The notes under the pieces: model-generated
The model's database searches: none
The model's input: the letters and a program-made list of their open reading frames with translations, nothing else
Told to the model about the DNA's origin: nothing
Shown: piece by piece, positions 1,055-4,786 of the stretch
How positions within the stretch are numbered: the first letter of the stretch is position 1
Layout: each line of letters begins with the position of its first letter
Virus record (IMG/VR): IMGVR_UViG_2565956721_000003
Length of the DNA stretch: 4,786 nucleotides
Direction: 5' to 3' (one strand)
DNA from: a virus
Taxonomy: Duplodnaviria; Heunggongvirae; Uroviricota; Caudoviricetes
Translations under genes and position numbers: made by a program

Positions 1055-1303
1055 ATGGCAAAGGGTGTGTCAATTTCTCCAACTACGGTAAGAATCCCTG
1101 AATCTTTACGCGAGGCTCTTGCTGTCAGAGCATCAAAAAATGGTCGCTCTGTTAACTCCGAGATCGTCATGATTTTGCAAGCCGCGATTGATGAAGATAG
1201 GTCGCCAAAGTCAGTTGAGTCATTTGCTCAGCAAGAAGCTGATAAATTCAAAGAGGCGCTACTTGAGACGCTAAAGACCATGTATGCTAAGGATGAAAAA
1301 TAA
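1055..1303 (+). CDS. mnt: Mnt-like ribbon-helix-helix repressor (82 aa)
   Basis: Within track ORF 1013..1303 the likely start is the ATG at 1055, with AAGGTG 4-5 nt upstream. Product MAKGVSISPTTVRIPESLREALAVRASKNGRSVNSEIVMILQAAIDEDRSPKSVESFAQQEADKFKEALLETLKTMYAKDEK matches P22 Mnt in length (82 aa), in the NGRSxNSE motif and in the C-terminal TLKxxYxK segment. It is divergent from arc as in P22 immI. Confidence 0.8.
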   Translation: MAKGVSISPTTVRIPESLREALAVRASKNGRSVNSEIVMILQAAIDEDRSPKSVESFAQQEADKFKEALLETLKTMYAKDEK

Positions 1304-1837
1304 TGCTGCACACAATTCATTTCTTATGCCCTGTTAACACTGCCACTGTTGGGCAACTTCAGAACCACTGTCTCACCGCATTATCTCAAGGCGCAACTGA
1401 ATTAAATATCCATATATCAAGTCAGGGAGGGGAAACTGCTTGGCTTTACTGCGTATAACTTTCTTAAGTCACTCCCTGTTACCGTTAGAACTCACAACAT
1501 AAGCAATGTTGAATCCATAGCTAATATCGTTTTCCTGGCTGGCTCAGAACGTTTCGCAAACCCATTATCAAGATTCCTGTTACATCCTCTATTATGGTGC
1601 TTTGCCTCCCCAGCCGCCGACCATGCCAGATTGAGAGAGTACGGGAAATGCCTCGATAACGATCTTGATCGCTTCGTTGAGACGTTCAATATCGACATCG
1701 GAACCCATATTAGGTGGGCATCCCTGATAGCAGACTCGACCATTTTGGATGCTAACAAGGCTCTTGAGCATGGCATAATTAATTCCATAAAAACTGCAAG
1801 GCTGGCATCCAATCAGGCAAACTGGTGGGTTGTTTGA
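1303..1837 (+). pseudogene. ClpP-like (S14-type) serine protease gene, start overlapping the mnt stop (TAATG), interrupted by a single-nucleotide frameshift near 1440-1441
   Basis: Frame 1 (1303-1458) gives MLHTIHFLCPVNTATVGQLQNHCLTALSQGATELNIHISSQGGETAWLYCV*. Frame 2 (open 1406-1837, includes track ORF 1631..1837) gives ...GFTAYNFLKSLPVTVRTHNISNVESIANIVFLAGSERFANPLSRFLLHPLLW...DANKALEHGIINSIKT.... Joined, this aligns with remembered E. coli ClpP across [47 protein letters not shown] and APEAVEYGLVDSI, with Ser/His/Asp at the expected triad positions. Removing one T from GCTTGGC (about 1439-1443) restores ...GGETAGFTAY.... Confidence 0.6.
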
Positions 1838-2910: not shown

Positions 2911-2977
2911 ACAAACCTCCTTCTTATCGGAGATTATCAATAGCTATGCATCCATTGAATACACGCTATGCGCAATA

Positions 2978-3006
2978 AGTTTACGTCACGTGATATCATT
3001 ATGCAA
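2978..3006 (-). promoter_or_regulatory. Candidate sigma70 promoter for the 188-aa/YafO-like operon, with palindromic candidate operator in the spacer
   Basis: Minus strand: TTGCAT (complement of 3001-3006), 17-bp spacer, TAAACT (complement of 2978-2983), about 60 nt upstream of the ATG at 2910. The spacer contains overlapping 8-bp palindromes TCACGTGA (2986-2993) and TGATATCA (2991-2998). Confidence 0.35.
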
Positions 3007-3085
3007 CCACCGTTCTATCACCGACTAACTTTACTCCCACTCCTATACATCATCTGGTATCCTGCGCAAAACTAAGGAGGTTGGT

Positions 3086-3436
3086 GTGAATGCTCAGTCT
3101 GTCATCATGGTTTTCCTTGGGCTGATTGTCGCAAAACTATATCCAGACTGGTGGAAAGGGGCATTAGCTACTGTCGCCATCTATTTGCTTTTATCCATCG
3201 TTAAGCGATCACTCGCTGAGACCGTAAATCAAGCAAAACGTTTCTCATTTAAGAGTTTAATAAACTATGTTACTGGGCTTATTTTTTGCCTTTCAATTCT
3301 GATCGCTTCGGCTTTTTTGCCCGTATCAATAGCTAATTTTTTTGGCGCACCATATGAGGTAGGTTATCTATTCTCTGTTTCCTGTCTTGCCATTGCTCTT
3401 CTTTACCTGTGGACGAGATCAAAGAATAAAAATTAG
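3086..3436 (+). CDS. Small integral membrane protein (116 aa, about four predicted TM helices); candidate superinfection-exclusion or abortive-infection effector
   Basis: Track ORF 3086..3436 with GTG start and AAGGAGG (3074-3080) at 5-nt spacing. Four hydrophobic stretches (SVIMVFLGLIVAKLY, GALATVAIYLLLSIV, LINYVTGLIFCLSILIASAFL, YLFSVSCLAIALLYLW) and a basic C-terminus RSKNKN. It occupies the position between mnt and gene 16 where P22 carries sieA; I could not confirm sequence similarity to SieA from memory. Confidence 0.65.
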   Translation: MNAQSVIMVFLGLIVAKLYPDWWKGALATVAIYLLLSIVKRSLAETVNQAKRFSFKSLINYVTGLIFCLSILIASAFLPVSIANFFGAPYEVGYLFSVSCLAIALLYLWTRSKNKN

Positions 3437-3453: not shown

Positions 3454-4691
3454 TTATTGAGCTTCTTTTTGTGATGCCTGTGCGACTCTGGTGAGCGATT
3501 GTGTGACCGTACTGATCGCTCTGTCATATGCTGTGCTACCTTTTGGCGTATTTGCCAGACGTAACAAGGCATTTCGTATAACAGGGCTTTCGTATGCCTT
3601 CGCAGCTCCTCCTACGACACCAGCAGCAGGAACAACAAACGCAGCCGTTTTTAGCATCCCCGCTAATACTGCTGCGTTTATGATGCCACCACCAACTAAC
3701 AATCCATAAAGCTGCTGACCATTTAAGTTTTGAACGTTCGCTTTTGCCGCGTGTCTTGTATCGTTGAGGTATTTAATAACGCCGTCCAGTTCCTTTCCAT
3801 GTACGCCTTTAAAGAAAGTTGCTGATTGCTTCCTGTTCCGGTGTAACGCATTAATAAACTTTTCAACACTAATATTTCCAGACGGATCAGTCGCCTTATC
3901 TACAGCATTCTGAACTATGGCTGCTCGTGCGTTTTGCCTACCATTGTCATCCAGAAGCCTGTAAAGCTGAGAACGTTCTGATGGGTTTTGGCTAAAAACG
4001 AGTTTTGTTACATCCTCAGGTGTAGCCTTGCCGCTGGCTATTGCCTTTTGAACGCGCGTTCTTCCCATCATGTCATTGAATCTAGCCCATGAGCGATCAA
4101 CCCTAGACATATTGGCAGCTTCTTCTGAGCCTAGTTTTTGGGATACTGCTTTTTTCATATCCGCTGTATATGCCTTGTAGACAATATCGCTGGCTTTCTG
4201 GAGCGTGTCTTTATCAACAGTCTCGTTTGAATTCATGAACCGCTTTCGAAGGTCAGTTCTGTTTTCTCTCGCCAGACGCAGGTCATTGGGTCCGCTGGTG
4301 ATATCGTCTTTAAATTGCTGCAAGACTTTTACCGCGGCTCTATCCTGAGATTTGCCCGGGCGGCTTAACACGGCAATCTGATTGTCGATAGCTTTTACCG
4401 TGTTTGAGAGATCGACAGGGGTATCCCCCATAGCGTCAATTATGCGGTTATATCGCTTTCCTGCTGCCTCAATGAATTTTTGTTGCCCTTTAGTCGCAGA
4501 TTCATAAAGCTGTTTATCAGAAATGCCACCCAGACCATCGCTAAATGTTCTGACTAAATTTTCTCGTGCTTGTTGTTGATTCAGCCGATTCTTACCGGTT
4601 CCAAAAAAAGGAACTCTTTCGCCTAATGTCTGAGCCTGACTCTGCATAAAGGTTTTATCTTTCAGCGTGTCACTGGTCATTAACGGCAGGT
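3454..4691 (-). CDS. Phage late protein, probable DNA ejection/injection protein (P22 gp16-like by position), 3' portion; 5' end interrupted by an IS element
   Basis: Track ORF 3454..4680 (408 aa). The frame stays open upstream of the ATG at 4680 through the IS boundary and stops only at 4717-4719 inside IS sequence, so the native N-terminus is missing. A glycine-rich hydrophobic segment (GLLVGGGIINAAVLAGMLKTAAFVVPAAGVVGGAAKA) sits near the C-terminus. Assignment to gp16 rests on synteny with P22 (gene 16 lies next to the sieA/mnt side of immI) and on the size deficit (about 410 of roughly 600 aa). Confidence 0.5.
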
Positions 4692-4786
4692 TGAACCGCC
4701 CCGGGAATCCTGGAGACTAAACTTCCTGAGAAAGAGGTAAACAGGATGACTAAAAATACTCGTTTTTCCCCCGAAGTCCGTCAACG
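4692..4786 (+). mobile_element. IS3-family insertion sequence (IS629/IS1203-like), left terminal inverted repeat and start of orfA; continues beyond window
   Basis: TGAACCGCCCCGGGAATCCTGGAGACTAAAC... from 4692 matches the IS3-family left end as I recall it (TGA terminus), followed by AGAGG and the ATG at 4746. Confidence 0.65.
4746..4786 (+). CDS. IS3-family transposase OrfA, N-terminal 13 codons only
   Basis: Translation MTKNTRFSPEVRQ(R) matches the OrfA N-terminus of IS629/IS1203-type elements from memory. AGAGG lies upstream of the ATG. Confidence 0.65.
   Translation, partial: MTKNTRFSPEVRQ

Follow-up and report, generated by a model that had tools for sequence, protein, structure and literature searches.

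A 175-bp intergenic interval (positions 2911-3085) was analysed in a 4,786-nucleotide (nt) stretch of viral DNA, record IMGVR_UViG_2565956721_000003, which is called the window throughout. Comparison with related loci indicates that this interval holds a real and evolutionarily conserved promoter, named here P_TA, for an operon encoding a YafO-family toxin and a 188-amino-acid (aa) protein, and that it is otherwise an ordinary regulatory region with a few interesting side features. An earlier reading of this DNA, made from its letters alone (the sequence-only reading), had described a divergent regulatory region with two overlapping palindromes in the spacer of the toxin-operon promoter, and had taken these palindromes for an autoregulatory operator. 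The divergent arrangement was confirmed, the 188-aa open reading frame (ORF) starting with the ATG at 2910 on the minus strand and a 116-aa membrane-protein ORF with the GTG at 3086 on the plus strand. The palindromes, judged by the alignment of the loci, appear to be the way in which the Escherichia coli lineage spells 13 semi-conserved nt of the spacer, rather than a conserved dyad operator. We lean towards the reading that a moderately weak constitutive sigma-70 promoter would drive the toxin operon in the lysogen, with the palindromes incidental to it and with modulation by a conserved block upstream of the -35 hexamer and by a leader that would sequester the Shine-Dalgarno (SD) sequence.

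A probable conserved promoter for the toxin operon

The proposed promoter was found at the location given by the sequence-only reading, with minus-strand TTGCAT running from 3006 to 3001, TAAACT from 2983 to 2978 and exactly 17 bp (2984-3000) between them. By alignment and scoring, it was the best-conserved promoter candidate in every related locus (Table 1). Conservation was measured across six diverged loci, in which the 188-aa protein is 54-79% identical, and the four-fold degenerate sites of two adjacent genes, 21% of which are invariant across these loci, served as neutral yardstick. The two hexamers together kept 9 of their 12 columns invariant (p = 1e-4 against the four-fold sites), and the promoter module was 67-77% identical, in contrast to 39-55% for third codon positions. 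The 33 nt between the upstream block and the sieA-type leader of the divergent gene are unconstrained, with 3 of 33 columns invariant.

P_TA matches the sigma-70 consensus at 7 of 12 positions (position-weight score, 9.95 bits), and its resemblance to sigma-70 hexamers separated by 16-18 bp is thus present, though weak. It was nevertheless the top-scoring candidate on the gene strand in seven of eight loci, always at the same position. Across seven diverged YafO loci, several HicA loci and two -10 variants, TTGCnn and TAnACT/TAGAAT are fixed in position and the spacer is always 17 bp, without insertions or deletions. The -10 hexamer occurs as TAAACT, TAGACT, TACACT or TAGAAT, and T-12, A-11 and T-7 are retained in all of them, including two E. 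coli variants detected in a scan of viral contigs, where TAAACT has changed to TAGAAT, a better -10. The locus comparison therefore supports P_TA as a putative promoter through the positions of its hexamers, their key bases and the fixed spacer.

The same module was also found ahead of an unrelated cassette. In Salmonella phage SEN22 and several viral contigs, the slot is occupied by a 217-aa DUF1902 protein, unrelated to the 188-aa protein, together with a HicA toxin. These SEN22-type cassettes have the module in common with the YafO loci from about -68 through the -10 hexamer (TAGACT) and diverge right after it. In one further prophage (L040, IMGVR_UViG_2880350357_000005; also L026) the 188-aa/YafO and DUF1902/HicA cassettes stand in tandem, and in L040 the ~65-bp promoter module is duplicated, with one copy for each cassette (2369 and 3801). 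Sharing and tandem duplication together delimit a portable promoter module of ~65 bp, and the fact that unrelated cassettes share it argues that the reader of the module is not a cassette-specific antitoxin.

Table 1. Coordinates of the features discussed in the text (positions in the window).
Feature	Positions	Strand	Basis or remark
Intrinsic terminator ACCCACC-GUCA-GGUGGGU plus U-run	1861-1885	minus	direct read; directly after the yafO stop codon
YafO-family toxin gene	1886-2335	minus	Pfam PF13957
Gene for the 188-aa protein, putative YafO partner (antitoxin-like)	2344-2910	minus	no DNA-binding domain detected
SD-sequestering hairpin AAUCUCC-loop-GGAGGUU	2914-2935	minus	predicted in all loci; 7 invariant pairs, variable loops
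5'-proximal leader hairpin, outer stem AUAGC...GCUAU	2940-2969	minus	outer stem invariant; inner stem and loop lineage-variable
Predicted transcription start	2969-2972	minus	from the -10 position (6-9 nt after it)
-10 hexamer TAAACT of P_TA	2978-2983	minus	5/6 columns invariant
8-bp palindrome TCACGTGA	2986-2993	none	direct read; E. coli-type variant only
8-bp palindrome TGATATCA	2991-2998	none	direct read; kept in L009 and L010
Semi-conserved 13-nt spacer element TGATATCACGTGA, consensus TGAYAYCAYRTSA	2986-2998	minus	locus alignment
-35 hexamer TTGCAT of P_TA	3001-3006	minus	TTGC invariant in all loci
Most conserved upstream block GGTGATAGAACGGTGG	3007-3022	minus	~-37 to -52; GGTGAT-N5-GGTGrT direct repeat
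sieA-type leader, SD and start codon TGGTATCCTGCGCAAAACTAAGGAGGTTGGTGTG	3055-3088	plus	34 bp, 97% identical to the region upstream of P22 sieA
116-aa membrane protein in the variable sieA slot	3086-3436	plus	SD AAGGAGG at 3074-3080, 5 nt before GTG 3086

Leader RNA

The ~60-nt leader counted from the predicted start (~2971) was predicted to fold with -19.7 kcal/mol (z = -2.7) on the operon strand and with -8.8 kcal/mol (z = -0.6) on the opposite one, so that the fold is strand-specific. This gene-strand fold was consistent across the variants, with z values from -1.5 to -2.6 in seven loci. Two hairpins make up the leader, and in the one pairing the anti-SD with the SD 15 of 22 columns are invariant (p = 3e-6). 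An analogous SD hairpin of different sequence, CUCCU-CACGA-AGGAG, was predicted in the Yokenella locus (L041), whose 188-aa homologue is 36% identical. When the window was compared by hand with locus L007, a single pair of the inner stem was seen to change from G-C to A-U. The Rfam scan of the window returned sar (556-622) and a sub-threshold match to the 3' end of sroH, and nothing else.

The operon and its partner protein

The toxin operon proposed by the sequence-only reading was borne out, since the toxin gene gave a clear Pfam match to YafO (PF13957, E = 3.4e-22, 78.9 bits) and the link between the 188-aa partner and YafO persists in relatives with as little as 25% identity. Only 8 nt separate the 188-aa gene from the toxin gene. 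The intrinsic terminator that follows yafO was not listed by the terminator scan and corresponds to the weak, sub-threshold sroH match. The 188-aa family is small: it forms 6 clusters at 90% identity, and a set of 1.84 billion proteins contains only 24 representatives of it at 50% identity; no relatives were found in GTDB representative genomes. All close relatives (54-79% identity) occupy this slot in P22-like prophages and are always followed by yafO, and in Yokenella, Proteus and Providencia yafO is still 3-10 nt downstream of relatives that are 25-36% identical. The partnership between the 188-aa protein and YafO appears robust because yafO still adjoins relatives as remote as these.

The sequence-only reading had itself cautioned that no DNA-binding domain was visible in the 188-aa protein, and the searches agreed with this. 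The protein had no match in Pfam and no sequence match in the PDB, its PHROGs matches were to families of unknown function only, and the PADLOC defence library gave nothing meaningful; ten remote relatives had no Pfam domains either. Its AlphaFold model (pLDDT 70) is an all-alpha bundle that lacks strands and whose C-terminal helix is of low confidence; the model had no PDB fold match at E <= 0.001. A novel DNA-binding fold is conceivable; DNA binding by the protein is unsupported. Separately, some distant members of the family (P0015-P0018) have signal-peptide-like start segments, with M11 of the window protein aligning with their start codon, and such a start would be odd for the cytoplasmic antitoxin of a ribosome-dependent RNase.

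The spacer and its palindromes

The palindromes were read directly at the positions originally reported for them, with an overlap of 3 nt. In the whole window 21 perfect 8-mer palindromes were observed against 19.5 expected, a second overlapping pair occurs within the gp16 coding sequence (4228-4239), and a window of this kind has a probability of 0.39 of containing at least one overlapping pair. The 175-bp intergenic region has three palindromes against 0.67 expected, and the probability of an overlapping pair in it is ~0.017. The palindromes are thus real and modestly unusual, and the latter only when the test is limited to the intergenic region. Neither of the two is kept as a palindrome among the loci: TCACGTGA is replaced by GCACATGA, CCATGTAT, TCACGTCA or TCATGTCA in loci that are not of the E. 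coli type, and TGATATCA is present in three of six types, the others having TGATAGCA, TGACACCA or TGACATCA. The Salmonella promoter spacer reads TTGACACCATGTATCG. Over the whole spacer, 7 of 17 columns are invariant (p = 0.053), which exceeds the neutral baseline only marginally.

The upstream block and the immI region

The block upstream of the -35 hexamer kept 10 of 15 columns invariant (p = 2e-4 against the four-fold degenerate sites). We considered whether TGATAGAACGGTG of this block could be kin of the prophage's own immI operators (GATAGCAAAGTG) or of the P22 Arc half-site, and this was rejected, because local alignment of the window did not rise above shuffles and the motif count was not enriched. 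The immI region of the prophage contains two inverted 13-mers, AGATAGCAAAGTG and CACTTTGCTATCA (979-991 and 1020-1032), which flank or overlap a Pant-like TTGACT-17-TATCTT and are probably Arc/Mnt-type operators unlike those of P22. Among the related loci, the immI operators are of three different types.

In the Salmonella-type variants L007, L009 and L010 the region of the spacer and the -10 contains TATCATGTCAA(G)TACACT, and this matches the core formed by the Pmnt -10 and the Pant -35 of P22 (locus L011, 559-576). The sharing hints at a possible common origin of the toxin promoter and the immI promoters. In the window variant this match to the P22 core is absent, and no significant likeness to the P22 immI operators was found.

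Regarding known regulators, no LexA box (CTGT-N8-ACAG, one mismatch allowed) was detected in the intergenic region, and no conserved match to Fur, CRP or FNR sites was seen there by inspection by eye, which makes this a weak rejection. Inspection also led us to reject a short minus-strand ORF lying upstream (3051 to ~3016; 11 codons, and 19-21 in other loci), since its substitutions are not codon-like and the frame is lost. In the Yokenella locus the motif TCAT(G/A)TGATGTC occurs three times (2863-2875, 4311-4323 and 4791-4803), one copy lying upstream of the promoter of the YafO operon. The other two sit where the 5' end of an acyltransferase gene is duplicated, and the idea of a regulon was discarded.

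The plus strand and the sieA-type slot

The sequence-only reading had reported no convincing plus-strand promoter for the membrane protein, and scoring came to the same result, with a best candidate of 7.1 bits, below the shuffle mean of 8.8. The conserved element on this strand is the 34-bp sieA-type leader, which also lies upstream of the slot genes of HK620, epsilon34 and many P22-like phages (1501-1534 in the P22 locus L011). It precedes unrelated genes from locus to locus, encoding SieA, a Rap1a immunity protein or various membrane proteins, and judging by this distribution it would serve a variable cargo slot as a conserved socket for translation initiation. The SD spacing favours GTG 3086 as start over the ATG 3107 given by the PGAP annotation. 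Within the leader, TGGTATCCT (3055-3063) is a candidate extended -10, which conforms to TGnTAnnnT in most loci. According to PMC10883804, a stretch of 85 bp upstream of P22 sieA is enough for function, and the promoter is placed within that distance of the gene.

Also on the plus strand, a 13-bp stem followed by a T-run (2221-2249) forms a terminator-like hairpin inside and antisense to yafO, where it could halt transcription arriving from Pmnt and the ClpP-like gene. In P22 (L011, ~1160-1502, minus strand) there is an ORF with an HExxH motif (AHECAHMAF), unannotated in the P22-pbi record, that diverges from sieA and whose ATG overlaps the conserved sieA leader.

Expression of the operon and alternative explanations

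According to the reading we favour, the P_TA module would transcribe the 188-aa partner and YafO leftwards within the hyper-variable "ant moron" of the P22-like prophage. We infer the start near 2971 and the activity of the promoter from the position of the -10 and from its conservation; the transcript would then begin with the ~60-nt leader and end at the intrinsic terminator after yafO. Its expression would be set by the moderate intrinsic strength of the promoter (7-8 of 12 consensus positions), by the upstream block, which could be the site of a binding factor or owe its constancy to a divergent promoter that overlaps it, and by a cassette-specific leader, whose 3' hairpin would pair the anti-SD AAUCUCC with the SD. 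The 5' hairpin could stabilise the transcript. These roles of the block and of the hairpins we infer from conservation and predicted folding.

Several observations weigh against this reading. P_TA is weak by consensus: its score is not significant alone (shuffle mean 8.8, standard deviation 1.9) and the consensus scan, with a threshold of 9/12, did not call it, so that the support comes from the comparative data. The L004-type loci have a stronger overlapping promoter (TTGACA-16-TATTAT, 14.8 bits), and for L009 and L010 the score of a second candidate, TAGAAC-16-TGnTATCAT, is nearly as high; consequently, start sites may differ between lineages. The spacer is somewhat more conserved than neutral sequence. 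Moreover, the consensus TGAYAYCAYRTSA matches exactly once in the Yokenella locus, inverted and 9 nt upstream of the -35 of its strong promoter (TTGACC-18-TAGACT, 12.9 bits), where 0.02 matches per 6.5 kb would be expected by chance, and given this recurrence the 13-nt stretch may contain a candidate binding site. As for the leader, RNAalifold found no strictly compensatory pairs because the stems are invariant, so that energy and conservation alone speak for its predicted structures.

In canonical type II toxin-antitoxin systems the antitoxin, alone or with the toxin, represses its own promoter, and the sequence-only reading had assumed the same here, with the 188-aa antitoxin, alone or together with YafO, binding the overlapping palindromes. 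Their place within the spacer of a conserved promoter is the classical one for an operator, and the low probability of an overlapping pair in the intergenic region also speaks for it. So do the predicted promoters of distant homologues, which have palindromes too, a 14-bp one (TTAAGTTAACTTAA) in the spacer of L045 and dyads at the -35 of L041, as well as the recurrence of the consensus element in L041. However, three of the four testable features of a type II autoregulatory operator point in another direction. Inverted repeats overlap the operon promoter, but the dyads are neither conserved nor co-varying in the orthologous operons, the protein has no ribbon-helix-helix (RHH), helix-turn-helix, AbrB or Phd/YefM domain by Pfam, PHROGs, PDB sequence or fold searches, and specificity for the cognate pair is contradicted by the identical module, spacer included, that drives the DUF1902/HicA cassette, whose upstream protein has no similarity to the 188-aa protein. 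With three of the four failing, a canonical operator is not supported. The signal-peptide-like N-termini in the distant members of the family also count against autoregulation. Unconserved dyads, a module common to an unrelated cassette and no DNA-binding domain together make antitoxin autoregulation through the palindromes unlikely; we give this explanation very little credence, and binding of the palindromes by the products of the operon appears very unlikely.

A different explanation is that the spacer element, the block GGTGATAGAACGGTGG or both form the site of a trans-acting regulator common to the toxin cassettes, supplied either by the host or by a phage gene lying outside the cassette, such as an RHH repressor of the kind found in three-component, omega-epsilon-zeta-like systems. 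The block is the most conserved part outside the hexamers, it has the 6-5-6 architecture of a direct repeat at about -37 to -52, and the module is common to two unrelated cassettes. Besides, Arc-family genes are always nearby, one being directly divergent in L045, and the Salmonella variants have 17 of 18 nt in common with the P22 Pmnt/Pant core (p = 0.003-0.017). Against this, the same block and the same toxin promoter coexist with three immI operator types, the likeness to the prophage's own immI region is at chance level by local alignment (p = 0.16-0.79), which separates the interval from the P22 Arc/Mnt operators, neither the spacer element nor the block has another copy in the 48-kb prophage region, and no LexA box or motif of an E. 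coli factor was recognised. Such a regulator seems to us rather doubtful. A broader version would make the ~65-bp module (about -68 to +1) a portable regulatory socket for unrelated toxin cassettes, read by one common regulator through GGTGAT-N5-GGTGAT and/or the TGAYAYCAYRTSA element, with the 188-aa protein as a YafO partner family free of DNA binding, and we judge this version improbable. Were it true, a P22-like prophage would switch several abortive-infection-type toxins on together, for instance on superinfection, and the 188-aa protein would be a new partner family for YafO that does not bind DNA.

The conserved stretches could also be explained by an overlapping back-to-back plus-strand promoter for the gene in the sieA slot, with a topology like that of Pant/Pmnt in P22. 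Its elements would be TGATATCAT (2991-2999) as extended -10, or nTrTCA-17-TATCAY (2993-2998 and 3016-3021) as -35 and -10. TGnTATCAT, read directly, is a 5/6 match to the -10 with a TG extension, in the L004 and SEN22 variants the corresponding positions read GTGTCA-17-TATCAT (10.0 bits), and the membrane gene needs a promoter, as the hairpin at 2221-2249 would block read-through from Pmnt. On the other hand, the best plus-strand score in the window is below the shuffle mean, the -10-like hexamers of several loci lack A-11 or T-7 (TGTCAA, TATCAG, TATCAC), the second module copy of L026/L040 is retained before the HicA cassette with no divergent neighbour, and the P22 promoter within 85 bp of sieA (PMC10883804) points instead to TGGTATCCT. 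We consider this explanation unlikely, and the constitutive promoter with incidental palindromes is preferred. Judged by the comparison of loci, the default assumption that a palindrome in a toxin-antitoxin promoter is a sign of antitoxin autoregulation does not hold here.

Genomic context

The window is 99.9% identical to P22-like prophages of the extraintestinal and avian pathogenic E. coli (ExPEC/APEC) strains APEC O1, S88 and FY26, of the type APEC-1/UTI-1 inserted at argW (tRNA-Arg). The gene order is ant (truncated), sar, arc-like, mnt-like and ClpP-like genes, the yafO and 188-aa genes on the minus strand, the intergenic interval, the 116-aa membrane gene on the plus strand, and gp16. 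The antisense RNA gene sar was recognised at full length (Rfam RF00262, 83.9 bits). The operon is present in prophages of ~1% of complete E. coli genomes, including APEC O1, S88, which is a neonatal-meningitis strain, and ATCC 11775, which is the type strain.

Termini of IS3-family insertion sequences (IS) were found in direct orientation at 1-89 (3' end) and 4693-4786 (5' end and transposase start); they truncate ant and gp16, leaving an IS-bracketed prophage fragment of 4.6 kb. With respect to S88, a 2-nt deletion at 1441 frameshifts the ClpP-like gene. Right after the yafO terminator, on the minus strand (1592-1849), there is an 85-aa ORF with a strong SD (AAGGAG, 5 nt before its ATG), antisense to the ClpP-like gene of the annotation. 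In related Salmonella loci yafO is followed by a 61-aa gene that points the same way.

Comparison with known systems

A testable promoter, a leader RNA and a terminator are now placed around an uncharacterised YafO toxin operon. As far as we found, the promoter module, its sharing between YafO and HicA cassettes and the leader structures have no published description. The side observations change no major concept, but the shared promoter module, the 34-bp initiation socket and an orphan family always coupled to YafO may be of interest to phage biologists.

The YafN-YafO pair of E. coli K-12 is a type II system encoded in the LexA-controlled dinB-yafNOP operon. Our operon has in common with it a toxin of the YafO family and a small upstream gene, 8 nt from the toxin gene. 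However, the partner is not YafN (Phd/YefM) but the 188-aa predicted all-alpha protein, from a tiny family without known domains, there is no LexA box, and the setting is a prophage. With another partner and no LexA box, the operon is not a member of the YafNO system. In the omega-epsilon-zeta system the epsilon antitoxin is helical and does not bind DNA, regulation being exerted by a separate RHH protein. The likeness lies in a helical putative antitoxin without DNA-binding domain and in the RHH (Arc-family) genes nearby, whereas the toxin family differs and, by the immI types and the alignment, nothing ties the nearby Arc and Mnt to P_TA.

The immI region of P22, with its overlapping divergent Pant and Pmnt and its Arc and Mnt operators (AF527608), occupies the same neighbourhood and is likewise a compact divergent control region. 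The Salmonella-type variants share the TATCATGTCAA(G)TACACT core with it, while the window variant has no significant similarity, and the toxin promoter studied here is constant across three immI types. Upstream of P22 sieA, a putative PsieA promoter is annotated in AF527608 and attributed to Hofer (1995) as cited in PMC10883804. The window shares 3055-3088 with that region at 97%, but the gene that follows is the unrelated 116-aa membrane protein, and the sequence further upstream, including the P_TA interval, is not common to P22.

Finally, the "ant moron" was described between genes 16 and 9 of P22-like phages, with the APEC-1 and UTI-1 prophages named among them and its genes given as unknown (Villafane et al., 2008, PMC2629481). 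The operon lies at this same site, between gp16 and immI/tailspike, where gene content is variable between phages. It also has the attributes of a phage moron, namely a putative promoter of its own, a terminator that can be read directly and a slot whose content varies among the loci.

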